This document shows positions 13,371 to 61,200 of a DNA stretch of 64,000 nucleotides, in pieces. Under the pieces are notes generated by a model. That model worked only from the letters and a program-made list of their open reading frames with translations. It had not been told where the DNA came from and ran no database searches. The stretch lies in NCBI GenBank assembly GCA_038087875.1, contig CM075989.1:8186001-8250000 (forward strand), given 5' to 3'. Every line of letters starts with the position of its first letter. The stretch's first letter is position 1. The translations under genes and the position numbers were made by a program. Origin of the DNA: Malacoraja senta (taxonomy: Eukaryota).

Positions 13371-13416
13371 AGGGTTTTTGCACTACTTCAGATTGCATGA
13401 CAATCTTTGCACCATT

Positions 13417-13570
13417 TTATGGAAACAAGGAACTGCAAATGCTGGTTTACAAAAATGGTGCTGGAGTACTTCATCGGGTCAGCGTTTCTTCAGATTGAAA
13501 GGTCCCAACCCAAAACATCTACCCATGTTGTCTAGAGATGTTGCCCACTGACTTACTCCAGCACTTTGTG
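13417..13570. mobile_element. Head-to-head pLTR pair (old) with TSD
   Basis: Inverted pLTR halves; 13-bp TSD TCTTTGCACCATT at 13404-13416 and 13571-13583. Confidence 0.7.
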
Positions 13571-15164
13571 TCTTTGCACCATTCTCCTGTTTGGTCATTA
13601 GAAAAATGTGTGATTTCATTCAGTGTAGAATTTTGTTTAAAAAAAATTCTCAAAGGGCAAGGAAGTTGGTGGAATTTCTGGACACAAATGCATGTTACTA
13701 CAAGAGATATTCCAAAATACATTAAAAAAAAACTATTTTATGAAAATATTTTCTAAGTCAATTAAAAACAGCCCTTGAGCAGTTTATGCCTCGCCCCATT
13801 GCTACAAGCAAAGCTAGATTTGTCAGAAATCCCCATTCAACTCAGCAATGGAACAAGTCAGGACCATCCCTTTGTTACCCACCTGCTACCTACTGGAAGT
13901 TCAGAAGCAGGATAGGCTTACATTGGTTCTGCAACTCAATCACATTGTGCCTGAATTTGCGCCAAATCTTATTTACTCGACCTTTCTGCAGGTTGCAAGC
14001 ACCAAAACTAAAAATCACACCTACACTTGCCAATTTTGTCTTTCGGTTTAGAACATTTTTCTAGCCTTTCATACCACCTCTCTACCCCCCCCCCCCCCTC
14101 CCATCTGTTCTCACTGTATTCTATCCTGGAAAACCATCCTCCTTGTCAGCATCTTTTACAAAAAATATTTACATTATGGAGACAAAGTAATACAGCACTG
14201 AAAAAGATCATTTGACCCACCATGTCTATGCTGACCTTACCTATACCAGTCCAGTTTACCCACAATTGGTCAGTAGCCTTCTGCGTTGGCAATTCAAGTG
14301 CTGGGCTGGACAAATATTGCAAGAGTACCTCATTACTTGTCATTCGAATCACTCTCCCATTTCCCCTAAGATCGTTTCTAAACCTTCCCCTTTCACTTTA
14401 TACCTACGCTATCTCGTTTTAGACCGCCCCCACCAACAGAAAACAATTCTCACTGCCTATCCTATTGTATTAGGTCACCCTTCAGCCACCTCCATTACAG
14501 AGAATACAAACCTAACCATCAATGTTTTCCTTGTAATCAAAGCTAATCGAAGCCAGGTAACATTGTGGTACATTTCTTCCACACTCTGTTCAATGCTTCC
14601 TATAGTATGGTGTTCAGAACTTGCTCATGACAGAAGTGCAGCCATTTGGCCCATGTCAGCTGCCAGAATTAACATTGTGGCCCTAGCCTTGATTTCTCTG
14701 CAAACTATTCACACATATGACCACGGATTCCTGTTATTCAATATTTTTCTACTAAAAGGCATAATTTACAGCAGCCAATTACTTAAACAATATTCTGTGG
14801 GAGGAAAAAAACAAGGTTATATATAAAAAATACAATGCGACTCATTACAGCCACAGAATTAAATTGGAAAATGCCAATTACACAATACTATGCAATAGGA
14901 ATGCTAATGTGTCCCAGTTAATTCCGAATTAAGTAATCAACATATTCCATTGCCACGAACAACACTCAAGGAATACATAAAAGGCACATCAATAAATCGC
15001 ACCAGTGAAAGAAAAACAGCAGGTAATTATCATCAGATAAAGTAACTTGCTGAAGCAGACAAGCAAAAGTAAAAAAGTCAATTCGAGAGAACTAAACTCA
15101 GTGTAGAAATACCAGTTGGGAAGACAACAAGACAAAAAGAATCAATTTCGTACACTATCACCAA

Positions 15165-18435: not shown

Positions 18436-19159
18436 ACATTATTTTCACAGATGTTACTTATGATTGACTTGGAAAGAACTAAACTACAATACTAAAGGAA
18501 AATCGCAACCTACATTGCCTCCTCTTCAGAAGGTCACCCCGACCCAAGTAATCAAACTGTAGTGCACAGATAACACCTGGATTTTTAAACATTCAGAAGC
18601 ATAACACCATCATTAACTATGTTCATTAAAGTCTCATGTTCCTCATTCATAAACAAAAGGTTCTCTGCCAACTTCCCCTGCAGTCCATTAAAACGTCCCA
18701 ATAATAAAAGTTCATTGTGAGAACCAGGAACCTTGACTACTTTCCACATCTTGGGAACAATGAAGGCAGAAAGCTCTTGATCCAATATATCACCAATGCC
18801 GCAAGGAAACTGTGCAGCCCTATTTCGCATAAAAAGGAAGCAAGACCACAGGTACCTCGAGGCAATGGAAATGTATCACAAATTCAGTTTCTACAAAATC
18901 CACCAATTAATTCACTGGGAAGTTAAGGTGAATAAGTGTGAGTAAACTCATCCAGGCTGACACTATGAGTCTCAGGTCCTAACTACATTCATCAGCTCTG
19001 TATCAATATCACCAGGAATACCTGGCCCATGGCTACCCCAAGTAGACAAAAATCATCCAGAAAGGTATTGAGAAACACAAGCCAGGAAGTGCAGTGTAAA
19101 CGCTGGAAGGAGCACACCACCTCACAAACCAATCCAGAGGGACAAGAGGTGCCATGACC

Positions 19160-19360
19160 CGATAGACACAAAATGCTGGAGTAATTCAGCGGGACAGGCA
19201 TCATCTCTGGAGAGAAGGAATGGGTCACTTTTTGGGTCGAGACCCTTCTTCAAAACGTCACCTATTCCTTCTCTCCAGAGATGCTGCCTGTCCCGCTGAG
19301 TTACTCCAGCAATGTGTCTAGCTTCGGTTTAAACCAGCATCTGCAGTTCCTTCCGACACG
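19160..19360. mobile_element. Head-to-head pLTR pair with TSD
   Basis: Inverted arms fused within the hammerhead region; direct repeat GGTGCCATGA on both sides. Confidence 0.8.
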
Positions 19361-20571
19361 GGTGCCATGAACAGACTGGCTGGCAGGTAGTCTGCCTACA
19401 AGATTGGTTGTATGCCATCCTGAGGTGAGGGATCAGCTAAAGACGACAACTTGCTCTGATGTTAATTTTGCTGCTGAAATGCCACATTTGCAGTTACGAT
19501 AAATTGTACTTATTTACAATTATGAGGACACACAGGTGGAAGAAATTGTGGCATCTGGTTTTTAAATTAAACCGTGCTCCAAAACCACAAAACAATCACT
19601 CTCGAGACTGAAAGGAGGGAAAACCCGTACCTGTACTGTAAACATTTTTGTACTATGATGAATCCACCTGGAGCCAGGAAAAACTACTGCAATGGATTTC
19701 AAATAAAATATACATGCCAATGTGCACAGTTAAGCTTTCATTAAAGTCCAAATGTGTGTGGAAGGAGAAGACACTTGTTCTCCATTCTGTCATTTGAATA
19801 AATGGTAATTTCAATCTATTTTCTAATACAGAACACAAGACTTGCATTGAAAGAATAAAGAATTTATTTGCAACTGCAAGGGATCTTTCTAAAAACGTAT
19901 TTTTTCTATTTGCATGTAATGAGGCGGTCGAGGGTAATGAAGTGAATCTTACAAATGAAGCATACATCCTAATAGTTTCAATCATTCTACTGATAGAAAA
20001 TAACTGAAAATACCACGTACAGTATATAAACAGGAATGCTGGATGTTGAATGAAACCAAAATTTAAAGATTTCCAACTCTCCCCAAAACTGATATAAAAA
20101 TTCATGATTTTCTTCATACATGCTTTCTTGACTATTTTTGCAACTGAAAGTTCTTTAAAGCAGTCATAAAAAAAAGCTAAATCAGAACCAATATGTGCTC
20201 AAGTGGTTCTGCATATAGACTAAAAATAATTATTTTTTTCATAAATTACATTTAACTTTGATATTGACAATAGGAAGCCATCAAATGACTTAGATTCCTT
20301 CGCTCCATAGATGCTCTCACCCGCTGAGTTTCTCCAGCATTTTTGTGTAGCTTAGATAAAAACCGAGTTTGTATAATCCGTTCAGACAGTTAAAATAAAA
20401 CATAATAATATGCTATGTTCTCAAATACATGACCAGGCAAGAATAATTCTACTTTAAAATTCCTGTGCATTCTCCAGACTAAATAACTTTGTGGATACAA
20501 TTTTATTGAGTTTTATTTTAAAGCATTATTGAAAATATATCACAACCTCTATAAAAAATACATTTCCCTCA

Positions 20572-20810
20572 GATAGAAGCAAAATGCTGGAGTAATTCAG
20601 TGCGACAGGCAGCATCTCTGGAGAGAAGGAATGGGTGATGTTTCAGGTAGAGACCCATCTTCAGATTCCTGAGACGTCTGAAGAAGGGTCTCGACCAGAA
20701 ACGTCACATAGTCCTGCTCTCCTGAGATGCTGCCTGTCCTGCTGAGTTGCTCCAGCATTTTGTGTCTATGTTGGGTTTAAACCAGCATCTGCTGTTCCTT
20801 CCTACACAAG
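20572..20810. mobile_element. Head-to-head pLTR pair, hammerhead core on each strand
   Basis: Plus strand CTGAAGA..GAAACGTC and minus strand CTGAAGA..GAAACATC; TSD TTTCCCTCA. Confidence 0.8.
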
Positions 20811-21129
20811 TTTCCCTCACATACCTTTCCATATTCCTCAAAGAGTATACAAATCATTGTAATTCAATCTTTATTCCCCAATATTCACACAACTCTGTTC
20901 TATAATAAAATTGCAAAATGCAGTATTCACACATTGTGAATGGGGATGAGAGTATGAAAAAACATTGAGATTTAATCATCATCTCCCAAAAAGAGTTGTG
21001 AAAATGGGCAAGGTGAGAAAGTGTTTTCCCCACAAATGTACTTTATTCATAATATACTGTAAATCCTGATCAGGATACATTTACTGCATCAATTCAATCG
21101 ATTATCTTATAATGTGACAATGCCCCTCA

Positions 21130-25453: not shown

Positions 25454-27063
25454 GAGGGGCTTGCAAAAGTTTTCATACCCCTTGAACTTTTCCACATTTT
25501 GTCACGTTACAACCACAAACGTAAATGTATTTTATTGGGATTTTATGGGATAGACCAACACAAAGTGGTGCATAATTGTGAAGTGGAAGGAAAATGATAC
25601 ATGGTTTTCAAATTTTTTTACAAATAAAAAACTGAAAAGTGTCACGTGCAAAAGTATTCAGCCCCCCTGAGTCAATACTATGTAGAACCACCTTTCGCTG
25701 CAATTACAGCTGCAAGTCTTTTGGGGTATGTCTCTACCAGCTTTGCACATCTAGAGACTGAAATTTTTGCCCATTCTTCTTTGCAAAATAGCTCAAGCTC
25801 AGTCAGATTGGATGGAGAGCGTCTGTGAACAGCAATTTTCAAGTCTTGCCAGAGATTCTCAATTGGATTTAGGTCTGGACTTTGACTGGGCCATTCTAAC
25901 ACATGAATATGCTTTGATCTAAACCATTCCATTGTAGCTCTGGCTGTATGTTTAGGGTCGTTGTCCTGCTGGAAGGTGAACCTCCGCCCGTCTCAAGTCT
26001 TTTGCAGACTCCAACAGGTTTTCCTCCAAGATTGCCCTGTATTTGGCTCCATCAATCTTCCCATCAACTCTGACCAGCTTCCCTGTCCCTGCTGAAGCAA
26101 AGCATCCCCACAGCATGATGCTGCCACCACCATGTTTCACAGTGGGGATGGTGTGTTCAGGGTGATGTGCAGTGTTTGGTTTCCGCCACACATAGCGTTT
26201 TGCATTTAGGCCAAAAACTTCAATTTTGGTCTCATCTGACCAGAGCACCTTCCTCCACATGTTTGCTGTGTCCCCCACATGGCTTGTGGCAAACTGCAAA
26301 CGGGACTTCTTATGGCTTTTTTTCAACAATGGCTTTCTTCTTGCCACTCTTCCATAAAGGCCCGATTTGTGGAGTGCACGACTAATAGTTGTCCTGTGGA
26401 CAGATTCTCCCACCTGAGCTGTGGATCTCTGCAGCTCCTCCAGAGTTACCATGGGCCTCTTGGCTGCTTCTCTGATCAATGCTCTCCTTGCCTGTCAGTT
26501 TAGGTGGACAGCCATGTCTTGGTAGGTTTGCAGTTGTGCCATACTCTTTCCATTTTCGGATGATGGATTGAACAGTGCTCCGTGAGATGTTCAAAGCTTG
26601 GGATATTTTTTTATAACCTAACCCTGCTTTAAACTTCTCCACAACTTTATCCCTGACCTGTCTGGTGTGTTCCTTGGGCTTCATGATAGCGTTTGTTCAC
26701 TAATGTTCTCTAACAAACCTCCGAGTCCTTCACAGAACAGCTGTATTTATACTGAGATTAGATTACACACAAGTGGACTCTATTTACTAATTAGGTGACT
26801 TCTGAAGGCAATTGGTTGCACTGGATTTTATTTAGGGGTATCAGAGGAAAGGGGGCTGAATACTTTTGCACGCGACACTTTTTCAGTTTTTTATTTGTAA
26901 AAAATTTGAAAACCATGTATCATTTTCCTTCCACTTCACAATTATGCGCCACTTTGTGTTGGTCTATCACATAAAATCCCAATAAAATACATTTACGTTT
27001 GTGGTTGTAACGTGACAAAATGTGGAAAAGTTCAAGGGGTATGAATACTTTTGCAAGCCACTG
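25454..27063 (-). mobile_element. Full-length Passport-like Tc1/mariner DNA transposon (DD34E)
   Basis: About 210-bp TIRs (25454-25668, 26851-27063) with inner and outer TGCAAAAGTATTCA repeats; TA at 25452-25453 and 27064-27065; 1.6 kb. Confidence 0.95.
25672..26684 (-). pseudogene. Tc1 transposase with two small frameshift deletions and a near-terminal stop
   Basis: MKPKEHTRQVRDKVVEK..; [20 protein letters not shown] with 34 aa between D and E; frameshifts near 26490 and 25990. Confidence 0.93.
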
Positions 27064-28850: not shown

Positions 28851-31255
28851 GGTTAAGGAGAGGCTGCAGAAGGTTTTCTGGAAAGGTTTAAAACCAGCTA
28901 CGGCAACCAGTCAGGTGACACTCAGTATCAGCAAGGAAATGACTCGCCACAGTTTTGTGCTACGCTTATGAACTGTTTGCCTTCCAGCGTCGCAATGGCT
29001 ATTAAAACCAATAATATGGACTGGTCAGAGTCTTCACCGGCCCGCATGTCAAGAGCTGTGAAAGCCTTTTGGAAAAACTGTCCTGTTGGAGACAGGGAAG
29101 CCCACATAAAGGCAAAAAATGAATATGTGAGCAAGCCAAACTATTTGCGCTGACTAGAGCCTGCACCCTGGCCGAAGGACTATCTGCAAATATTTACACG
29201 GATTCCCAATATGCTTTTGGAGTGGTTCATGATTATGGACAATTATGGAAGAATGGGGGGTTTCTAACCTCTTCAGGGACAGTGATATCTCACAAAAATT
29301 GGTTTCTAATTTGCTACAGGCCATTCAGTTACCCAGTCAGCTTGCTGTTATCAAAGTTAGAGCCCATACTATAGGCCAAAGCCCCAGAGACATAGGAAAT
29401 CGCCTTGCCGACGAGGCAGCTAAGAAAGCTTTTAGGAGTCACCAAATTGTTGTGCCCCACATGCTGTGGCAGACTAAAAATTATACTAGGAAGTCTCCCC
29501 TGGAAAAAGGAAGTACTTCAGGTACCCAAACTTCAGGTACCCAAGGAAGCCAACCATCCAGGAAGTACTTCAAATATAGGAGGACGATCCTGCCCAGGTA
29601 AAACAGCTGTGGCAGGACTAGGGTTGTGTGGTACGATCCTGTCACTAGCTTGTGGGTTACGCCTGCCAGCAAGACTTGCGTTGTGGGTTATTGAATGTGT
29701 ACACTTTGCAACTCATTGTGGTGCCAAGGCCGTACGTGATATGCTTTTAGAGACCCGGTGGCATCCAAAACCTCTGGACTTGTCCCAGCGTATCTGCCAG
29801 CGATGTCTGATTTGCCAGCAGCATAATCCAGCTAAGGACTGGCCCTGTGAACCAGGTAAGACCCCTTTACCAGCAGGTCCCTTTGAGACTTTGCAAATGG
29901 ACTACATTGAGTTGGAAAGATCTCAGTGTTATATGTTCTTGTAATTGTTGATGTTTTTAGTAAATGGATAGTTATCGTTGGTGCCTCTCATGTGTGTGGT
30001 AGCATTATATTTTTGAATGAATCAGACCAAGAGGAAATATAAAAGATTCAAGGGACTGAGTGGATGATGTTTGAAAGATTCTTTGTGTAACTGATTTTAC
30101 AAAGGATGTGAGTTTATTGCAATAGGCAGAATCAGGGATTGTAAAATGAGCAAATGCAAAGGTGTTGTTAATAAACCATGTATCTGGGGCGTTACTGCGC
30201 TGTATAAAACTGCAGTTGCCGCATGCCTGCCGCTGGGCTGATCCCCTAACACCGCCAGTTCCATCTGGGTGTGAAACCATGTGGATAAATGAAATGGATT
30301 AAAGCATATCCGACCACTGACAATAAAGCCTCTAACGTTGTAAAAATATTATTACGCGAAATCATACCGTGATTCGATGTACCTGCGCGTTTAAGTTCAG
30401 ATAATGGTCCTCATTTTATTGCTGCTATAAACAAAGAAATGTGCCATCAATTACAGATACATCAACAGCTCCATTGTGCGTATCGACCTTAGGTCGCCGG
30501 ATTGGTGGAACGAGCAAACCAGAAATCCAAATTAGCAAAATTAGTGGCACAGACTGGCTTAACATGGTTAAAACTGCTCCCTGTAGCTCTTTTTCAGATA
30601 CGGACCACTCCTTCTGGTACGGCACAAATAACGCCTGCGGAAATCATATATGGTCGACCTTTACAGATGCCATGGAACGACCATGGCCCCCGTGATGGTC
30701 CATTTCCACCAGATTACTGAGGAAATGACATCCTATGTATTAACGTTAATCCGTGCTTTGCGAACTTCTCATTCACGGGTCAGGGCTGCATATGGTGAGT
30801 GCTCAAAGTTCCATCTAATATTGAGCCAGGTTGCTAGGTGCTGGTCAGGAACTGGACGAGTAAGCACCTCAACGCACGTTGGGATGGTAATTTGCAGGTT
30901 CTCCTCACCGCTCCGACCGCAGCCCTTAAATCGAGGGTCGCGCTGCGTGGGTTCACCCGAACCACTGCAAATTGATTGGGGAGACCAATTAAAAGGGGGG
31001 AAGAAGAGTAATTTTATTTTTAATTTAGAGTTTTTTTCGTTTAAGTTTAGTTTTGAATCTTAATAAGTTTAGTTTTTGAATCCTTATTTTGCTATATGGT
31101 TAAGAATATGCAACTGAATACTGGACTGACTGACTGAAGGACGTTTAAATTGAGTGAATTTGTTGTTTAAGCTAATTAAGTAAGAAATTAGCTTTTTGTG
31201 AGGCTTTGCATATTCCAGATAAATCAAAATGAGGCGATTCATCCTGCTATGCATA
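28850..31255 (+). mobile_element. Class I (epsilon-like) endogenous retrovirus fragment: putative gag piece, RNase H, integrase, PPT, probable 3' LTR start
   Basis: ALTRACTLAEG..ANIYTDSQYAFGVVHDYG..W; KVRAH..GNRLADEAAK; H-H-C-C zinc finger; LQMDYI; SSDNGPHF; GLVERAN; PPT AAAAGGGGGGAA near 30991-31002. Confidence 0.88.
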
Positions 31256-32829
31256 GATACATAGAAAATAGGTGCAGTTAGATCATCCAACTCAGTATCC
31301 CGTACCTGCCTTCTCTCCATACCCCCTGATGCCTTTAGCCACAAGGGCCACATCTAACTCCCTCTTAAATATAGCCAATGAACTGGCCTCAACTACCCTC
31401 TGTGGCAGAGAGTTCCAGAGATTCACCACTCTGTGTGAAAACGTTTTTTCTCATCTCGGTCTTAAAGGATTTCCCCCTTATCCTTAAGCTGTGACCCCTT
31501 GTCCTGGACTTCCCCAACATCGGGAACAATCTTCCTGCATCTAGCCTGTCCAACCCCATAAGAATTTTGTAAGTTTCTATAAGATCCCCTCTCAATCTCC
31601 TAAATTCTAGCGAGTATATGCCGAGTCTATCCAGTCTTTCTTCATATGAAAGTCCTGACATCCCAGGAATCAGTCTGGTGAACCTTCTCTGCACTCCCTC
31701 TATGGCTATAATGTCCTTCCTCAGATTTGGAGACCAAAACTGTACGTAATACTCCAGGTGTGGTCTCACCAAGACCCTGTACAACTGCAGTAGAACCTCC
31801 CTGCTCCTATACTCAAATCCTTTTGCTATGAAAGCTAACATACCATTCGCTTTCTTCACTGCCTGCTGCACCTGCATGCCTACTTTCAATGACTGGTGTA
31901 CCATGACACCCAGGTCTCGCTGCATCTCCCCTTTTCCTAATCGGCCACCATTTAGATAATAGTCTGCTTTCCTGTTTTTGCCACCAAAGTGGATAACCTC
32001 ACATTTATCCACATTATACTGCATCTGCCAAATATTTGCCCACTCACCCAGCCTATCCAAGTCACCTTGCAGTATCCTAGCATCCTCCTCACAGCTAACA
32101 CTGCCCCCCAGCTTAGTGTCATCCGCAAACTTGGAGATGTTGCCTTCAATTCCCTCATCCAGCTCATTAATATAAATTGTAAATAGCTGGGGTCCCAGCA
32201 CTGAGCCTTGCGGTACCCCACTAGTCACTGCCTGCCATTGTGAAAAGGACCCGTTTACTCCTACTCTTTTGCTTCCTGTTTGCCAGCCAGTTCTCTATCC
32301 ACATCAATACTGAATCCCCAATACCGTGTGCTTTTAAGTTTGTATATTAAACTCTTATGTGGGACCTTGTCGAAAGCCTTCTGAAAGTCCAGATACAACA
32401 CATCCACTGGTTCTCCCCTATCCACTCTACTGGTTACATCCTCGAAAAATTCTATAAGATTCGTCAGACATGATTTACCTTTCGTAAATCCATGCTGACT
32501 TGGTTCAATGATTTCACCACTTTCCAAATATGCTGCTATCCCATCTTTAATAACTGACTCTAGCAGTTTCCCCACTACCGATGTTAGACTAACTGGTCTG
32601 TAATTCCCCGTTTTCTCTCTCCCTCCCTTCTTAAAAAGTGGGGTTACGTTTGCTACCCTCCAATCCTCAGGAACTACTCCAGAATCTAAAGAGTTTTGAA
32701 AAATTATCACTAATGCATCCACTATTTCTGGAGCTACTTCCTTAAGTACTCTGGGATGCAGCCTATCTGGCCCTGGTGATTTATCGGCCTTTAATCCATT
32801 CAATTTACCCAACACCACTTCCCGACTAA
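31255..32829 (-). mobile_element. Young CR1 LINE, 5'-truncated, RT largely open
   Basis: ORFs 32818-32261 and 32228-31389: YRPVSLTS, QHGF, YLDFQKAFDKVPH, GVPQGSVLGP, KFADDTKL. Confidence 0.95.
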
Positions 32830-32980
32830 TTTAAGAGACAGTTAGACAGGTACATGGATAGGACAGGTTTGGAGGGATATGGACCAAGCGCAGGCAAGTG
32901 GGGCTAGTGTAGCTGGGACATTGTTGGCCGGTGTGGAAGAGTTGGGCCGAAGGGCCTGTTTCCATACTGTATGACTCTAG
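32830..32980 (+). mobile_element. CR1 3' end (second family) abutting the 5' end of the young CR1
   Basis: Same tail as 11840-11930; gggccgaagggcctgtttcc. Confidence 0.8.
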
Positions 32981-33176: not shown

Positions 33177-33550
33177 AGTGGGCAGGACAAAGATAGAATG
33201 TAGTTGGAGACAGTAAGACTGGTGGGAGAACTGGGGAGGGGATGGAGAGAGAGGGAAAGCAACGGCTATTTGAAGTTAGAGAAGTCAATGTTCATATCGC
33301 CGGGGTGTAAGCTACCCAAGCAAAATATGAGGTGCTGTTCCTCCAATTTGCGCTGGGCCTTCAGACTGATTTCAGGGGAGTGGGCAGGACAAAGATAGAA
33401 TGTAGTTGGAGACAGTAAGACTGGTGGGAGAACCAGTCTTACTGTCTCCAACTACGTTCTATCTTTGTCCTGCCCACTCCCCTGAAATCAGTCTGAAGAA
33501 GGGTCTTGACCTAAAACGTCACCCATTCCTTCTCTCCAGAGATGCTGCCT
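33177..33550. mobile_element. Rearranged Penelope 3' fragments with a 67-bp fold-back
   Basis: AQRKLEEQHLIFCLGSLHP..MNIDFSNF on the minus strand; arms 33359-33425 and 33432-33498. Confidence 0.85.
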
Positions 33551-39935: not shown

Positions 39936-39960
39936 AAGAAAAACAGAAAACATACGTGGC

Positions 39961-40245
39961 TAGACACAAAATGCTGGAGTAACTCAGCGGAACAGCAAGC
40001 GTCTCCCAAGAGAAGTGATGTTTTGGACCGAGACCCTTCTTCAGACTGACTCGACCCAAAACGTCACCCTTTCCTTCTCTCCAGAGATGCTGCTGAGTTA
40101 CTGCAGCACTGTCCTGCTGAGTTACTGCAGCACTTTGTGTCTATCTTCGGTGTAAACCAGCATCTGCGGTTCCTTCAAAGGTCTGTTTATTGTCACGTGT
40201 ACCAATTAAGGTACAGTGAAACTCGAATTACTGCAGTTCCTTCCT
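39961..40245. mobile_element. Head-to-head pLTR pair with internal duplication and insertion
   Basis: Inverted pLTR halves; TSD AAA(C/T)ATACGTGGC on both sides. Confidence 0.75.
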
Positions 40246-40364
40246 AAATATACGTGGCGACCCTTTGCGTTCTTTGTATATCGTATGCAAAAACAAACAT
40301 TTCACAGTACCTAGATACATGTGACAATAAAATATCATAGTCAAGTCATTGTTTCGCAATCACA

Positions 40365-44408: not shown

Positions 44409-44476
44409 GTCAAACTTTAAAGACAAACTAGCAGCATCATTTGCAAACATACAAACAGTACATGTACAATTCTGCA

Positions 44477-44687
44477 ATAGACACAAAATGCTGGAGTAAC
44501 TCAGTGGGACAGGCAGAATCTCTGGAGATAAGGAATGGGTGACATTTTTCGGGTTGAGACACTTCTTCAGCCCCAAAATGTCAACCATTCCTTCTCTCCA
44601 GGGATGCTACCTGTCTTGCCGAGTTATTCCAGCATTTTGTGTCTACCTTCGATTTAAATAAGCATCTGCAGTTCTTTCCTACAATAC
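44477..44687. mobile_element. Head-to-head pLTR pair with TSD
   Basis: TSD TGTACAATTC(T/G)GCA at 44463-44476 and 44688-44701. Confidence 0.8.
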
Positions 44688-45889
44688 TGTACAATTCGGC
44701 AGTCTGTAGATTAAGGAAGTGAGATACATCAAATAACTGAAAGTTGTTTGAAGTGGAAATACTCTGAAATGTCAGATAGTACCTAAATGAGTAATGTCAT
44801 GTTAGAGGATCAAATAAAAGAATAGTTTAAACGCATTTGAAATATTGACTGTTTTCAAAGTATTCTCATGGATAGTCATAAAATGGAGGAGATTTGAGAA
44901 AATAAATCAAGCTTGATGCAATCGGGACAGCAAGCAGGTTCTGTATAGTCCACCTTTGATCAGCCATATCTCTGATACTCCTGTAGGACCGGGGTAAAGC
45001 TTAATACTCTTGGCTGAGTGATTTCCCGTGTAACACCTTTTAAAGCTTTATATATGGTCTTGAAGATTCAAGTCAGAGCAACAGAACGATCATTGCGTTT
45101 TCGACTGAGGCATTGGCAACTATACTTACATAACTTAATGCCATCCAGATTGAAACAGTCTAATTGATTATCACCCTTGTCACTATAAATTGTATCCCCT
45201 TCAGCACCAACGCACTTCAGCTACAGTAGCTACCTGATGAAGAATTATTACAACGTTTATCGTGGCACTTTTCCAATTGCAAAGACGAGCAGTAAGATTG
45301 TGAGAACACGAAGATTGTAACCATTTTGTCTTGCACATATATTGCCTTACTTAATTATTGCCTGTTCCCCAAGATTCCTTATTTTTTTAACAAGTTTCAG
45401 CCTAAAATTAGTGAACGTAGGCAAATTTGCAAAAGTGCTGGTTCCAAACAAATTCACTGTTTTATTTTCAGAGACACAAAACGGCTGTATGGGAAGTATG
45501 CCTTGACAGGCACATATATTATCCATCTAAATATATTAATTATTTGGCCCATCTTTGATCTTGTCACTTCTGAGACATCTTCAGTGATGAGCACACGTCA
45601 TTCAAATACGTTGCTGTTCTAGGATGTGCTTTACTGGGCAGAGTGGAGATAGTGACACTAATAATGCACCTGAACTCCATGTACTTGATGCTAACATCGT
45701 GTATTTAAATGGAAATTTATTCTGTTTCCCACCGATGAGGTCTCTCGAATTAAAGTGGACAATGTTAATAAACATACACATGCCGTCTTTGTATTTTCAT
45801 TTTTGTGTTGCATTATATTTCAGTGAAATTAAATCATCTGAGAATTAATTATACACCAGAAAAATAACACAACTGAATATAGCTATCGG

Positions 45890-48741: not shown

Positions 48742-49921
48742 CAGGCACGTGCCGTCAGGGTAGGCAAGGTAGGCACTGCCTACCCCGACTAAAATTATAA
48801 AATGATAATTATTAAATATAAATAGTAAAGGCACGGGAGAATTATGCCTACCTAAGAGATCGATCTCTTAGGTAGGCATAATTCTCTGTGTCTTTCATGC
48901 GCAGTACATGTAATACGGGAAAGTGTGCAGCCCACGTGCCGTGGACGCTGCTTCAAGCCATCAATTTCAAGCAGAGCTGAAGGCAGCTGAAATTCTGCCT
49001 TTGCAGCATGGACTGTGTACTGCGCATGCACAGCGCAGCGCAAGCGGCTGTAAAATGGGAAGCGGCAGTAAAAGGACAGCGCCGCTGGGGGGGGTGGGGG
49101 AGAGTTCCTTTCACAGCGTGTGGGGAGTCTGGCCAGCGGTAAAGTTGCAGGAGGGCAGGAGCGTTGAGAAGGAGGGGGTCGGGGATCATGCCAGAGCAAC
49201 CAGCTCAAGAGCGGGTCAGAGGGCGATGGATAACAGGACAGCGGGCGGGGAGCTTACTCCATGTGTCAGTGCGAGTAACCTCAATTGGTCCCTTGTTCGT
49301 GCTGACACAGTAGTGTCCACTGCCCGCTGTCCTGTTATCTATCGTCCGCTCTGTGATCTTTGCTCTTGAGCTGGTCCCCTCACTGTTCAGATAGAGAGCA
49401 CTGCCAGAGGTGACTGGGCTAGCAGAAGGCGCTGAGGTCCGGCGGCCGCTCGCAGCCACCCGAGCTGCTTCCCTCCCCAGCCACAATGCTGTGGCTCCGC
49501 GCCCGGAGGCAGCGGTAAGTGAGTGAGTTGCTGGCATGATCCCCGACCCCCTCCTTCTCAACGCTCCTGCCCTCCCCACAACTTTACCCCTGGCCAGACT
49601 CACCACACGCTGTGAAAGGAACTCTCCGTCCCAAATGGTCCCTTGAACTAGTATTGGCATTCAATAAGAACACAATTGATTCAACTTGTCCCGGTGTGCT
49701 CCCGTTTTTCCCACCATCTCTCCACCTGCCGTCACCCCCCACCCATTCAGTAATTCAGAATGAAGGAGATTTGGAAGCCTTGGGCAAATTGAATTGTAAC
49801 TTTCTTTATTTTTATTCTTTATTTTTACGAAGAGGAGAACAATCTGCGCATGTGCGGTTTAAGATTTTTTTTTAAGCCGACTGACTGCCTACCCTGAGTA
49901 ATTACTCACGGCACGTGCCTA
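48742..49921. mobile_element. Non-autonomous hAT-superfamily element (MITE-like)
   Basis: TIRs CAGGCACGTGCCGTCAG / TAGGCACGTGCCGTGAG; perfect 8-bp TSD GTCTAGTA at 48734-48741 and 49922-49929; subterminal GTAGGCA/TGCCTAC repeats. Confidence 0.9.
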
Positions 49922-53812: not shown

Positions 53813-54934
53813 TAAATTTGATTTTATGATCTGTAGAGGCTTTTTTTTGCATCTGTAACCATAGGTGTATTAATGCAATTGAAAGCATGAAAGAAAAGGG
53901 ATACAATATTTGGGTCATATCTCTGGTAGGATCATGTGTGTCTTGAATCAGGCACCAGATGATGCTTGCAATGATGCAACGATGAGTTGCTTTGTGAGAC
54001 TGATTTCCCTACCTTCACTTCTCTCTCCAATCAACCCTATTCCCTTCCCTACATCACAATTTCCAACCACACACATGATCATTTCCTTGAGGATTGTTCA
54101 ATTTTACACCTTTATTCATTAAGGTTTCAGTGCCAAAGGTGTGAATTAGGAAATAACAAGCCTAGCTAGACAGAATAAATTTGGCACGCCTAAATTGGAC
54201 CTGGTTGATTCTCAGCTCTTAAAAATTGCAAGTTTAAGATAGTATTATTGGATCGTATTGCAAATACAAGCAGATCAAGATAATCTGAATTGGAACAGAT
54301 TAAAGTTTCAGATGGGACCCAAAAACAATTCTGATGAAAGGTTCACTAGCCATTACAGCTGAAAGAAAGATAAATTTTAATTTCCAGATCAGTCTAAATC
54401 AGTCAAAATTAGCTTTTAATTATTAGATTCACAAATTTGAAAAAAAAAACAATTTTGCAAAATCGGCTGTTTCATAAGGTTTAGATTATGTACTCCATCT
54501 ACTGACACTGGAGAAAGCATTGATATTGTCTATAAATCTGCCTCTTGTACAATATACACTTTAAAAAAATTATGAATCCATAAAAAAGTAAATGGGATTG
54601 TACCAGTATTGTTCCCATTACAATATTATTTTAAACACAAATATAGTGCATAAAGTTATGCACTTCTCCCCATCTTGCCCATGTCCAAACCAGAATTCCA
54701 GAATTATGATCTTTAATCCATCCCAGCTGTCTTTAGAAACCTCCTCACCTCAGTGGTCATTCTTCACCTGGTGGCTTTGATAGTGAGAGTCAGTATTAGA
54801 TTTGGAGGAGGAACCTCTGAACTAAATTCTGCCCACGATGAACATCCAGAGAGGTTGTTTCTTTTTGGATATGTGCATTGCTGACAAAGTCAGCATTTAT
54901 TGCCCTAACTTAATGAGAGTAAGGTATAAACTTG

Positions 54935-57456
54935 TTTAAGAAAGAACTGCAGATGCTGGAAAAATAGGTAGACAAAAATGCTGGAGGAACTCAGCGGGTG
55001 AGGCAGCATCTATGGAGAGAAGGAATAGGTGATGTTTCGGCTTGAGACCCTTCTTCAGACTGATGTCGGAGATGGGGGGGGTGGGGGAAGGAAGAGGAGG
55101 AGACAGTAGGCTCGTGGGATAGCTGGGAGGAGAAGGAGGGAGAAAGCAAGGACTATCTGAAATTTGAGAAGTCAATGTTCATACCGCTGCGGTGTAAACT
55201 ACCCAAGCGAAATATGAGGTGCTGTTCCTCCAATTTGCGCTGGGCCTCACTCTGGCAATGGAGGAGGCCCCGGACAGAAAGGTCAGATTTGGAATGGGAG
55301 GGGGAGTTGAAGTGCTGAGCAACCGGGAGATCAGGTTGGTTAGTGTGAACTGGGCGGAGGTGTTGGGCGAAGCAATCACTGAGCCTGCGTTTGGTCTCGC
55401 CGATGAAGAGAAGTTGACACCTGGAACAGCGGATGCAGTAGATGAGGTTGGAGGAGGTGCAGGTGAACCTGTGCCTCACCTGGAAAGACTGCTTGGGTCC
55501 TTGGATGGAGTCGAGGGGGGAGGTAGAGTGACAAGTTTTGCATTTCCTGCGGTTGCAAGGGAGAGTACCCGGGGAGGGGTGGTATGGGTGGGAAGGGACG
55601 AATTGACCAGGGAGTTATGGAGGGAACGGTCTCCGCAGAAAGCAGAAAGGGGAGGAGATGGGAAGATGTGGCCAGTGGTAGGATCCTGTTGGAGGTGGCG
55701 AAAATGCCGGAGGATTATATGTTGCATGCGACGGCTGATGGGGTGGAAGGTGAGGACAAGGGGGACTCTGTCCTTGTTACGAGTAGAGGGATGGGGAGTA
55801 AGAGCAGAGCTGCTGTTCCACCGAACTTATTTCCACATACCTCGACTCCATCCTATCCCCTCTGGTCATGTCCCTCCCCACCTATGTCCAAAACACCTCA
55901 CACGCTCTTCGTTTCCTTCATGACTTCTGTTTTCCAAGCCCCTACTCCCTCATCTTCCCTATGGATGTCCAGTCACTCTACTCCTCCATCCCCCACCAGT
56001 AGGGTCTTAAAGCTTTCCGTTTCTTCCTCGACCGAAGAACCAACCAATCTCCGTCTACTAATACTCTTCTCCGCCTAGTGGAGCTGGTCCTTACTCTCAA
56101 CAACTTTTCCTTTGTCTCCTCCCATTTCCTCCAAATCCAAGGCGTAGCTATGGGCACGCGCATGGGCCTCAGCTATGCCTGCCTCTTTGTAGGGTACGTC
56201 GAACAATCCCTGTTCTAGGCATACCGTGGCTCTATACCCTGAACTCTACCTCCGCTACATTGACGACTGCATTGGTGCTACCTCCTGCACCCATGCAGAA
56301 CTCACTGAATTCATCCATTTCACCCTTAATTTCCATCCGGCATTCAAATTCACCTGGACCCTTTCCGACATCTCCCTACCGTTTCTAGATCCCACCATCT
56401 CCATCGCAAACAACAGACTACTTACCGACGTCTACTACAAACCCACTGACTTCTAGCTACCTTGACTACACTTCTTCCCACCCTGCTTCCTGTAAGGACT
56501 CTCTCTCCTACTCCCAATGCCTCAGCCTATGTCACATCTCCACCCAGGATGAAGTGGTCCAGATCAGGGCATCGGAAATGTCCTCACTCTTTAGGGAACG
56601 GAGGTTCCCTTCTTCTATTATAGATGAGGCTCTCACCAGGGTCTCCTCTATATCCCGCAGCTCCGCTCTTACTCTCCATCCCCCTACTCGTAACAAGGAC
56701 AGAGTCCCCCTTGTCCTCATCTTCCACCCCATCAGCCGTCGAATACAACATATAATCCTCTGACATTTTCGCCACCTCCAACGGGATCCTACCATTGGCC
56801 ACATCTTCCCATCTCCCTTGTCAATTCGTCCCTTCCCACCCCCTCCCCGGGTACTTTCCCTTGCAACCGCAGGAAATGCTACACTTGTCGCTTTACCTCC
56901 CCCCTCGACTCCATTCAAGGACCCAAGCAGTCTTTCCAGGTGATGCAGAGGTTCACCTGCAACTCCTCCAACCTCATCTACTGTTCCAGGTGTCAACTTC
57001 CCTACATCGGCGAGACCAAGCGCAGGCTCGGCGATCGCTTCGCCCAACACCTCCGCTCAGTTCACACTAACCAACCTGATCTCCTGGTGGCTCAGCACTT
57101 CAACACCCCCTCCCATTCCGAATCTGACCTTTCTGTCCTGGGCCTCCTCCATTGCCAAAGTGAGGCCCAGCGCAAATTGGAGGAACAGCACCTCATATTT
57201 TGCTTAGGTAGTTTACACCCCAGCAGTATGAACATTGACTTCTCCAATTTCAGATAGTCCTTGCTTTCTCCCTCTTTCCCCTCCACCTTCTTAGCTCTCC
57301 CGCAAGCCTACTGTCTCCTCCTCTTCGTTTCTTTTTCCTTTCCCCTCCCCCCCGACATCAGTCTGAAGAAGGGTCTCAACCTGAAACGTCATCTATTCCT
57401 TCTCTCCATAGATACTGCCTCACCCGCTGAGTTCCTCCAGCATTTTTGTCTACCTC
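54935..57456. mobile_element. Penelope-like element with inverted 5' copy (RT plus GIY-YIG, disrupted)
   Basis: Minus copy 54935-55813, plus copy 55814-57456 with MDVQSLY, GVAMGT.MG, YLRYIDD and GIY-YIG; TSD AG(G/C)TATAAACTTG at 54922-54934 and 57457-57469. Confidence 0.93.
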
Positions 57457-58252
57457 AGCTATAAACTTGAACCATTTTGGTCTTCTGTTAAAGGCACACC
57501 ACTGATCTCTTGACTAGAGAGAACTATGATACATTTGTAAATCAGAATGGTGTAGTCATAGCCTTGACAAGTACCCACAGTGCACTTGGTAGATGATAAT
57601 GCACAGTGAACATCTGATAGTGAATATGAACTGAGGACACTGGTGGCTTTTCAATTCACTAGCTAAAGTTGTAGTGCTAGTTCCAAACCCCAGCAAGTAT
57701 TATCAAGGGTCTGTGCAGCCTGTTTGTACTGTATTCACAGGACAACTATAAGTAAATAATAGTTAGTAATTTGAAAAAGAAAGCCAAAACATCACTGAAC
57801 CAATTTGGTTGCACAGCTTTGTAGTGCAGTATGTAATTATTCAAAATGTTCACGAGGATGGATCATATTGTCCATTATAACTGAAGTCATTTGAATAATT
57901 TTGTAATAAGATGCTGTGAAATTCAAACTTGCAGTTATTTTCTTATCCTTGCCCTTTAATTAATGCGGACATCAGTATGTGTTTTCAGCATCCATCATGA
58001 TTCTCATAAATTAATTGACTCGCACCATTGATGCTCAAACATATTTTAAATAAGTAAAGGTGATGAAATTCAATAAAAATAGGAGAGCAACTTCTAAATT
58101 GTGTGATTTACAATACAAGTTTTTCAGGAACAAAAATCATTCGGTTCCACAGCTCCACAGGAGGTCTGGAGTATGTTTATTTGCACCATACATCAGATAA
58201 ATTTAGTAAAAATAACAATTTAATGTTGGGTTGTGGTATAATACCCCATGTG

Positions 58253-61200
58253 AAATAGTAAGATTAAACGAGAACTTACCAAGTTTGAAGTTTGATCTTT
58301 ATTTTATGAGGAGTTACGTTGGTGATTACGTGAAGACGACCCGTCAGGGCGCATGCGCGTCAATCTTCAAAGCAGCGGTATGAAATCACAGATAACACAA
58401 TATTTGAAGTAACATATTAAGATGAGCAACATGAGAACTACCATATGACCTTTTTTATGAGAGAGGATTGGGCATGGCGGGCACGTAATCACCAACGTAA
58501 CTCCTCATAAAATAAAGATCAAACTTCAAACTTGGTAAGTTCTCGTTTAATCTTACTATTTTACTTCGGAGTCACGTTAGTGACTACGTGAAGGGTTCAA
58601 AGCTCTGTGATTTTATGCCGCAGATCCAAATCCTGGCTTCTCACTGCATTGATTGACTTTCGATGAGAAACAATCAATAATGCGTTAAACATGAAATGTG
58701 AATATCATGCAGTAACAATTGATTTGAATAATCAAAACAACCAGTAACCCCTCTATCCCAGGGGAAACTAAACAGGATTTAATCCTGAATTTACAAACAG
58801 CCTCTCACCGATTGGCAATCAGCCGATAGTAAAAAAAATTTAAACAATTCATTTGACCACCCGGCACCTGTAAGAATATGGCCGATGTGAACATCCATCG
58901 CCCTAGCTGACGACGTTGCTGCTGCACTAGTGGAAAAGGATATATACACTTCAGTGTTAATACCTGCCTGAATCAACATTTGCTTTAAACCACCTTGAGA
59001 TAGTCTGCACTGACATTCTCCTATGTGGCAACATGTAACTAATAAACAATGCTGTTTCCACATTTCTTAAGGTCTTTATAGCTTCAATATAATGAAAATA
59101 AATGTGCCATTACACATAAACATGGATCAGTAGATTATGCTGAAACACAATTTTAACAAACCTGTGACACCTGGCCTGCTCTGTTTGAGCAGGACGCAAA
59201 TATATAACATAACATTCTCTTCAGCAACTTCCATCCTGTCTAGCAGAAGCTTTTGCAAACTCTGCACTTGCTATGCTGAACCAATGCCATGAGCATAACC
59301 ACTTTCATGATTAGTTTGGCAAATTCAGAGACATGACAGGAACCTACTGTCGAAGCATCTTGAGGACCACACTTACATCCCAGATCGTCATATACCTGGG
59401 TTAAGGAGGTTTAGAGTTGAAATTCCTTTCATCAAATTCAGCTCTGATATGATGAAATTCAGCTCTGATATGATGAAACCCAATAGGATCTTTCCTAACC
59501 CCATCAAAACCATACGAGGACAAAGCACTTAAAGCTGTATTAATGGAGCTATAACTGAGCCCCTCATCATCGTAGAGTGTCAACAGGAACTCTAAAATAT
59601 CCACAATACCTGCAGTACTATAGTCAATATTATTTTGTACACAATATTGCTCCCATTTTTTTTAACATAAGTAATATACCCCTTTTGAGTACTCTTTCTC
59701 CAGGCTACAGTGAGCATGTCCACCGTTCACCCAGACAGTCCTTGCTCCAGGTATGGCCTTCTTAAAACCTGCAAATTAACAAGTCAATACTATCACATAA
59801 CAGATGACTTTCCCGTGTTAGCGGATGCTCCAGTAAATTCCTACGCTTGGGAACCACCAAAAAGAGGTTGGATCCCTAACTGTAACATCAAAGGGAACCA
59901 TGCTTGATTCGGCCAATTAGGTATTACAAGCACCCCCAAAGCGGCATCCTGCTTGATTTCTTGCAGACTCCGACCTATTAGGCAAAATGGTAGGAAAATA
60001 TATAAAACATACCACCCCAATGTAACGTCAAAGTATCAATTGCAACTGCCACCTGGTCTGGTTCCCATGAAACCTATTTAGGCTGCTGATGGTTGAACCT
60101 TGATGCAAAACAAATCGATATCTGTCATTCATATATAAGTACTATATTATTGAACACCTCCTGGTTCAACATCCAATCCATGTTGTCATGGAACTTTCGT
60201 GACTTGGCGTCTGCTACTATGTAGAATCTACCTGGTAGATAAATATCTGAAATATATTTTTCAATGCACCAGGCCCAAATTTGATTAGCCAATCTGTCAC
60301 AAAATACCGACTTGATTCCACCGATGTGATTAATATATATGCCACTTGCGTAGTATTGTCAATCTGAAACTGAACATGCAGATCACATTTGTTAGAGCAA
60401 TAAGCCTCTTAATAATTAATTGCCCATGCCTGCAGAAGTGATCCCTCTTGCTCAGTCCATCTGCCTCCACAGCTGAAACTCGTATCCGTGACACCCCACC
60501 CGAGTGCACTGACATTCATCTGCAAAATCATGGAAGGCTGGTCAAGCATTACCTTGCTATAACTTCTGGACACATGGTGAATCCACCATTGCAAATCAGA
60601 AATAGCCTTTACTGATAACTGCATAGGTCTATTATAATGACCTGATTGTATCCTTAATGCCTCCATTAGCTTGATACACCTGTCAATTAGCTCTACCCTT
60701 TTTTCCCTGGGCAGAGTCACTTAATTGAATCAATTCTGACCCAAATAGTCAGGTGTTAATTTGGATTCCTCTGGATGAATAATGCCCAATCTTTGAAAAT
60801 TGGATTTAACAACTATCACCTGTTACTTCAGCTGTTCTCTTGGATACCCCTATATTCAGGATATCATCGAGATAAGCCATGAGCACCTGACCCTGGCCTC
60901 TCAGCATGCCTATTATAGGTTTTAACAATTTTGTTGCCATAGTTGATCCATCCAGGTGAATTTCAAATATCCTTATCCTGCAAATAAACAGACATTGAGT
61001 AATGCGCATCTTTAAGGTCTATAGTTGCCATATAGTATCCTCTTGACCCAGTTGCTTGGCAGTGACAATTCCATCTTACAATGTCTATACTATATCCCCC
61101 ATCCTTTTTTGGCCTGGGAAAATATTAGACACAAATTGATGGGGTTGGTGAACCAACTTTACCATTACACCTTTAACACATAAGCTTGCAAGCGCAGTCT

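Follow-up and report, generated by a model that had tools for sequence, protein, structure and literature searches.

Head-to-head pairs of short repeats in the genome of the skate Malacoraja senta are probably very short insertions of a Neptune-type Penelope-like retrotransposon, primed from both nicked strands of the target at two internal RNA start sites, with the two cDNAs joined at their inner ends. The pairs are real and abundant, represent a known kind of Penelope insertion and provide a useful mechanistic record, and they are not viroid-like. Five of them lie in the window, by which is meant the whole stretch of 64,000 nucleotides that was analyzed, and the original prediction had described each as two inverted pLTR halves inside a single target-site duplication. 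This proved correct: all five are minus/plus (5'-to-5') pairs of one repeat, each within its own duplication of 9-12 bp and each composed of one short and one tailed arm. The arms had likewise been described as unequal, and at all five loci the outer end falls at +89 to +93 on one arm and at +123 to +128 on the other. In the numbering used here, 0 is the C of the CTGAAGA core and the predicted hammerhead cut lies after +27; inner ends at the five loci were placed by split alignment. The features are as follows.

13405..13583, no strand assigned: 13.4-kb pair, older and internally deleted, tail on the left arm, without a complete core; inner ends +56/+5 with 14 nt between; duplication 13405-13416/13572-13583 (12 bp)
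19148..19370, no strand assigned: 19.2-kb pair, junction +1/+21, without a complete core; duplication 19148-19157/19361-19370 (10 bp)
20563..20571, plus strand: left copy (9 bp) of the target-site duplication of the 20.6-kb pair
20572..20665, minus strand: short arm of the 20.6-kb pair, pLTR -1 to about +92; core letters kept, helix II and helix III damaged
20666..20675, no strand assigned: 10-nt filler at the head-to-head junction of the 20.6-kb pair
20676..20808, plus strand: long arm of the 20.6-kb pair, pLTR -2 to +128
20678-20705, plus strand: core of the 20.6-kb long arm, helix II closing pair broken
from about 20771, plus strand: 35-nt tail of the 20.6-kb long arm
20811..20819, plus strand: right copy of the target-site duplication of the 20.6-kb pair
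39952..40258, no strand assigned: 40.0-kb pair joined at -5/+12, with other sequence breaking up the tail; only the minus arm has the core region, in mutated form; duplication 39952-39960/40250-40258 (9 bp)
44463..44697, no strand assigned: 44.5-kb pair, junction 0/+17, core letters on the minus arm only; duplication 44463-44472/44688-44697 (10 bp)

At 20.6 kb, where the junction is -1/-2 with 10 nt of filler between, CTGAAGA..GAAAC is present on both strands, as had been claimed. This is the sole locus of the five to keep the core letters in both polarities, the core having been removed from at least one arm by the junction or by a deletion at the other four. Contigs of two other organisms, with flanks about 5% different, extend from the flank into the ends of the copies at 19.2 and 20.6 kb, none of them bridging the whole hairpin, which suggests that these two copies may be old insertions common to other organisms.

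Such pairs are equally evident in unselected DNA. In a sample of 100 stretches of 10 kb (1 Mb), taken at round coordinates on large contigs, 405 arms were found in 297 clusters, among them 212 single arms, 56 simple head-to-head pairs and one simple tail-to-tail pair, and the 108 adjacent arm pairs comprised 75 head-to-head, 10 tail-to-tail and 23 tandem arrangements. The density is about 56-75 head-to-head pairs per Mb or, extrapolated to 1.94 Gb, roughly 110,000-145,000 pairs, these counts being lower bounds because the profile search overlooked some overlapping arms (four were noticed among the solos). Together, the 56 sampled simple pairs and the five of the window make up a set of 61, in which both copies in L064 are counted; 30 loci picked by their likeness to the 20.6-kb copy were excluded from all counts. 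A long and a short arm are combined in 43 of these 61 pairs and in all of 32 young pairs (both L283 and L284, from one duplicated site, being among the 32). Around 21 of the 43 long-plus-short pairs there is a duplication scoring at least 9, versus 0.5% of shuffled flank pairs, and the other 22 are without a clear duplication, as expected of old copies. The orientation bias and the flanking duplications show that head-to-head pairing is not due to chance. In old pairs, arms differ by 0.124 within pairs vs 0.178 between pairs, and in the 32 young pairs by 2.9%, with 34 shared variant calls; judged by these differences, the two arms have the same source at birth and decay independently afterwards. 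In L269, and perhaps in L231, a source-variant site differs between the arms, which hints that two RNAs may have contributed to some events.

The junctions bear on how the pairs arise. In principle, a non-autonomous, fold-back mini-element, similar to a MITE or a retrozyme, could be transcribed from a few masters and inserted again as a whole, and the great abundance of the pairs would fit such an element, as would an identical 27-nt junction in hundreds of copies: genome-wide, exact palindromic joints were found at 482 and 820 sites. The original prediction had likewise raised a propagating subfamily with shared junctions. Yet there are 58 junction types among the 61 pairs of the sampled stretches and the window, with at least 1 nt of filler at 43 junctions and none at 18. 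Fifty of the 61 unselected junctions lie away from any palindrome; the 11 palindromic ones (about one in six) comprise six on the palindrome at -5..+3 and five on helix II. Furthermore, the shared joints lie on palindromes that pre-exist in the parent, and the central palindrome base comes from either arm, in a ratio of 18:14 among the 32 young pairs and of 7:5 among older sites (scored by eye in the 12 of 15 sites that were orientable and independent), ratios based on 32 plus 15 sites, every one of them from the largest contig. Since the central base is not fixed relative to the tail, the recurrent joints would not come from a master copy. They are found in several source variants, the variant being identical in the two arms, and an ORF-bearing copy (L202) carries the same palindromic joint at its 5' end; along with the mixed central base, these observations argue that palindromic joints formed repeatedly by annealing. 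Among the 32 young pairs, no arm-specific change was found to recur in one direction, except through the local duplication of one pair. The remaining identical junctions (L008/L011, L014/L015 and two in L064) look like duplicated segments, with shared flanks checked for L064 only. Re-insertion as a unit is thus quite unlikely and, for the two commonest joints, largely refuted; by the sequence of their junctions, the pairs are joined anew at each insertion.

The parent of the repeat is recognizable in the window, where decayed 3' ends with a GIY-YIG-like frame are followed by the same repeat as the pairs.

54931..55614, minus strand: 3' end of a parent element with pLTR and tail
56694..57469, plus strand: 3' end of a parent element with decayed linker and GIY-YIG frame, 3' UTR and a pLTR that stops at the short site

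As a separate observation, positions 55153-57254 of the window recur about 148 kb further on (C13:8389371-8391469) at 99.9% identity, which is either a recent segmental duplication or an assembly duplicate.

Genome searches found a young parent family with open frames of more than 1,200 aa and 95-98% protein identity. Many intact 1,212-aa frames of this young Penelope-like family occur at loci L188-L203, on several contigs, and the family offers a ready substrate for in vitro study of a Neptune-type element. At 16 fetched loci with intact parents, the longest frames among those listed are 1,200-1,302 aa. The loci listed are arranged as core, short end, tail, 34 nt, ATG, 1,212-aa ORF, 3' UTR and core again, from which it follows that the arms of the pairs are pieces of the pLTR and that the tail belongs to the 5' leader of the element. 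The 3' pLTR of the parent terminates at either the short or the long site, and pLTR matches flank the ORF on both sides at L188-L201 and L203, among the loci listed, and also at L144. The 1,212-aa ORF matches RVT_1 at residues 696-865 (E 7e-6) and, C-terminal to this RT, GIY-YIG at 1116-1149 (E 0.0014), both Pfam matches lying below the cut-offs; a PDB sequence search with the parent protein gave no matches. Thus, the features of an EN+ Penelope-like insertion are present, namely an ORF with RT and C-terminal GIY-YIG, flanking pLTRs, and an inverted, 5'-truncated copy with a 30-40 bp tail inside the duplication. The consensus and the intact parents also keep a minimal type I hammerhead, with the core letters, the G-C closing pair of helix II and a palindromic helix III. 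A zinc-finger-like motif between RT and endonuclease marks the Neptune clade and is shared with Nematis (PMC8557442). A C-x4-C-x2-C motif precedes the GIY-YIG domain in the L189 protein, and this linker points to a Neptune or Nematis type, the putative clade being assigned by the linker motif alone.

The original prediction placed the junctions in or near the ribozyme, and their distribution is indeed non-random. Among 94 clean inner ends of pairs, 48 fall at -7..+5 and 28 at +6..+24 (76/94 in -7..+24), with none beyond -7; this count leaves out 14 pairs whose arms are separated by more than 15 nt, some of which reach further upstream. Solo copies share the limit, 115 of 221 starting at -10..+9, as do 13 of 28 solo starts defined by a duplication (-11..+10). 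Of 46,703 exact core copies, 52% leave the consensus at -2 to -5 (11, 21, 19 and 16% per step), most at -3 and -4, and 48% run on through -5. In some pairs, such as L291, both arms reach into the end of the ORF, which together with this 48% indicates that copying also takes place from the 3' pLTR of longer RNAs. The short arm extends further 5' than the tailed arm (median +3 vs +15, p 0.003, n 34).

This 5' wall falls in TCAGT just before the core, a sequence that we take to be an initiator-like motif. The internal promoter of Drosophila Penelope includes an initiator (PMC2377424), and Adineta Pen2a carries an initiator-like TCACT (PMC3846280); an ACGT in the skate repeat, a candidate downstream promoter element, lies about 3 nt off the spacing expected from Drosophila Penelope (PMC2377424). 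Judged from DNA ends only, the common break point immediately ahead of the ribozyme is likely to mark the RNA start of the element. In 39 inspected 5' ends, counted after the duplicated loci L251 and L270 had been dropped, 15 are preceded by a re-copied piece of the element start, vs 11% in controls, and 2 are point variants of longer copies. Such pieces are as expected if the enzyme runs off the end of its template and then jumps back. G is common at -3 and -4 among the matches listed, for which a cap-derived G was considered, and the re-copied filler also ends in G.

Two other causes of the wall were considered. Cleavage by the ribozyme as the origin of the template 5' end was rejected, as only 2 of the 94 pair ends and 4 of the 221 solo ends lie near the predicted cut (+28). 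Splicing would make a small circle, and the genome contains zero copies of the direct joint, a result at the DNA level only; no splice-type direct joint was found in the fetched loci either. A pyrimidine tract and AG do lie directly before the core, with a donor-like site at the ATG (L189:2330-2345 and 2495-2505). Helix I is where an intron of Drosophila Penelope ends.

The probable sequence of events, then, would begin with nicks about 10-15 bp apart in the two target strands, from both of which the element protein would prime reverse transcription at about +92 and about +128 of one RNA. The template would be the 5' leader of a transcript starting in the initiator-like TCAGT; given such a start just before the core, the enzyme would run off the RNA 5' end after 95-130 nt. 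The cDNA ends would be joined either by annealing at a palindrome within the ribozyme itself, as in about one pair in six, or through filler, leaving dead, decaying copies in which the ribozyme cores would be passengers, predicted to be kept from folding by the rod. What is seen in support is that a pair has a single duplication, that one of its arms is short and the other tailed, that the two arms come from one variant, that junctions are seldom repeated and that inner ends accumulate at -5 to -2 in pairs and solos alike, and the recurrent Penelope inversion mechanism that had been proposed at the outset is upheld. A vertebrate Penelope-like protein cuts and extends both strands, initiates within the RNA at two sites bounding the tail and uses uncut RNA (PMC11167929). 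Because both arms cover the same stretch of RNA, priming on one RNA would need strand displacement.

A more specific version is put forward tentatively: the stubs may be integrated strong-stop cDNAs, made by a two-headed Penelope RT at both nicks from a single RNA, with two start sites in the 5' leader and run-off at the capped end, the palindromes of the hammerhead serving as annealing points and not as a cutter. If this were true, about 100,000 pairs would give single-base positions for the transcription start and the two initiation sites, and head-to-head Penelope inversions would be explained without an antisense template.

The main rival is self-priming, in which a strand would fold back at a palindrome and copy itself, with the endonuclease later trimming one arm to produce the tail. 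Both elements of this model are in print, fold-back self-priming having been proposed on an antisense template (PMC3846280) and endonuclease resolution of the tail having been published separately (PMC8557442). The arms are nearly always of the same source variant, which would fit snap-back copying and priming on one RNA equally well, and the strong recurrence of the two palindromic joints is also in its favor. Nevertheless, self-priming is rather unlikely, since it does not account for the junctions off palindromes, for the filler joints or for a central base drawn from either arm, and the end of the short arm coincides with the ends of solo copies and of 3' pLTRs. Moreover, tail ends matched reverse-transcription starts in vitro (PMC11167929). 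Priming from both nicks thus remains the preferred reading.

The original prediction had further envisaged rod-like RNAs bearing ribozymes of both polarities. The rod stands, as a prediction for a read-through transcript: at 20.6 kb, the fold is -148 and -128 kcal/mol on the two strands (z -16 and -14), a rod-like form that follows from any inverted repeat. Ribozymes of both polarities as a rule are not supported. An Rfam scan of the window found no hammerhead family, with seven weak, unrelated matches, and although both arms span the core in 14 of the 61 pairs, the invariant core letters are present on both strands in three, one intact ribozyme fold in two and both in none; hammerheads functional in both polarities were not found. 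At 20.6 kb, neither arm has the minimal type I features intact, the plus arm having a broken closing pair and the minus arm a helix II mismatch and a lost helix III palindrome. Opening the core against the rod is predicted to cost about 30 kcal/mol on either strand there, and helix II has a probability of 0.0000.

Viroid-like RNAs, with hammerheads working in both polarities, that would be cut, circularized and perhaps copied from RNA to RNA, are therefore extremely improbable as an explanation of the pairs. Viroid hammerheads likewise face each other in a rod, being silent in the stable fold and folding during transcription (PMC11722881), which is a point of agreement with the predicted rod and the two-stranded core letters of the 20.6-kb copy. 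In a head-to-head pair, however, transcription passes through the antisense arm first, so that the core is predicted to be paired on emergence; each strand has a single core, so that no unit can be cut out, and the minimal type needs a partner (PMC4209133). In addition, core letters are kept no better than neighboring positions, ends show no excess at the cut site, and no circle-forming joint was found at the one site tested. Nor are the pairs retrozymes, which are head-to-tail arrays with at least two complete ribozymes, as the arms at the five loci face head-to-head and neither strand carries more than one core. A 52-nt pLTR piece (+10..+58) does occur in head-to-tail arrays beside the element end (L159:2525-2743, L160:2572-2790, L162:4118-4388); these arrays are without most of the core and so are not retrozymes as defined. 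An unbroken helix of at least 30 bp is predicted in 16 of the 61 pairs, making a role as a passive source of dsRNA plausible.

Several other elements were observed in the window. Positions 33177-33550 hold a longer inverted insertion of the same Penelope-like element, whose 3' UTR region contains an almost perfect inversion of 67 nt. At 58245-58569, inverted arms of 88 nt (97%) surround 149 nt; these are unrelated to the pLTR and may represent either a MITE or one end of a DIRS-type element. Nested GC-rich inverted repeats with 25-49 nt arms lie at 48837-49660. An LTR-type or retrovirus-like element has left disrupted RNase H and integrase zinc-binding frames at 29233-30000, and a Tc1-type transposase fragment lies at 25952-26494. 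Finally, positions 31389-32830 contain LINE reverse transcriptase fragments, presumably of CR1 type.

Penelope-like elements are the closest mobile relatives of telomerase. In primates, inverted Alu pairs give hairpin RNA when read through in introns, and the tens of thousands of short inverted repeats present here could do the same. How inverted, tailed Penelope-like insertions form is unsettled in published work (PMC8557442, PMC11167929), and this genome combines a young intact family with minimal insertions in very large numbers, which allow one to read off where copying starts, how far 5' it goes and by what rule the ends are joined. No description of such a density of minimal pairs in cartilaginous fish, or of the 5' wall, was found in a literature search that covered mainly open-access papers.

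The inverted-pLTR-plus-tail architecture itself is already published for Penelope-like elements (PMC3846280, PMC8557442, PMC4209133). Inverted-pLTR insertions of Adineta Pen2a (PMC3846280; scheme in PMC8557442) resemble the skate pairs in their head-to-head pLTRs, in a palindrome or overlap at the joint, in the 9-10 bp duplication, in the 30-40 bp tail on one arm and in the initiator-like pLTR motif (PMC3846280). In contrast to Pen2a, the skate insertion consists of two pLTR stubs only (110-280 bp), at about 56-75 per Mb, with most copies ending at a single 5' wall and most joints lying off palindromes. Poseidon_Ac of the green anole (PMC11167929) is similar in its two internal starts bounding the tail, in its pLTR hammerhead and in giving no sign of cut RNA as template; its ORF begins inside the hammerhead, whereas the skate ORF begins 34 nt after the tail and has a cysteine linker of Neptune type.

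Likewise, the minimal hammerheads of metazoan Penelope-like elements (PMC4209133) share the CUGANGA core, the bulged base before helix II, the G10.1-C11.1 pair and the palindromic four-base helix III, and hammerhead pairs on opposite strands, 100-700 bp apart, were already noted in that work. Unlike in those hammerheads, helix I here has only two pairs next to the core, and the probable RNA start would shorten it. Non-LTR retrozymes (bioRxiv 10.64898/2026.07.22.740005) are also non-coding, pLTR-derived and hammerhead-bearing, but they are head-to-tail arrays with a ribozyme in each unit. Finally, Avsunviroidae and the carnation retroviroid-like element (PMC11722881) are alike in a rod fold of similar length with facing hammerhead letters. 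Viroid-like RNAs of this type are, however, circular and replicated from RNA to RNA, whereas the skate DNA form is not head-to-tail and has cores decayed or deleted on one strand.
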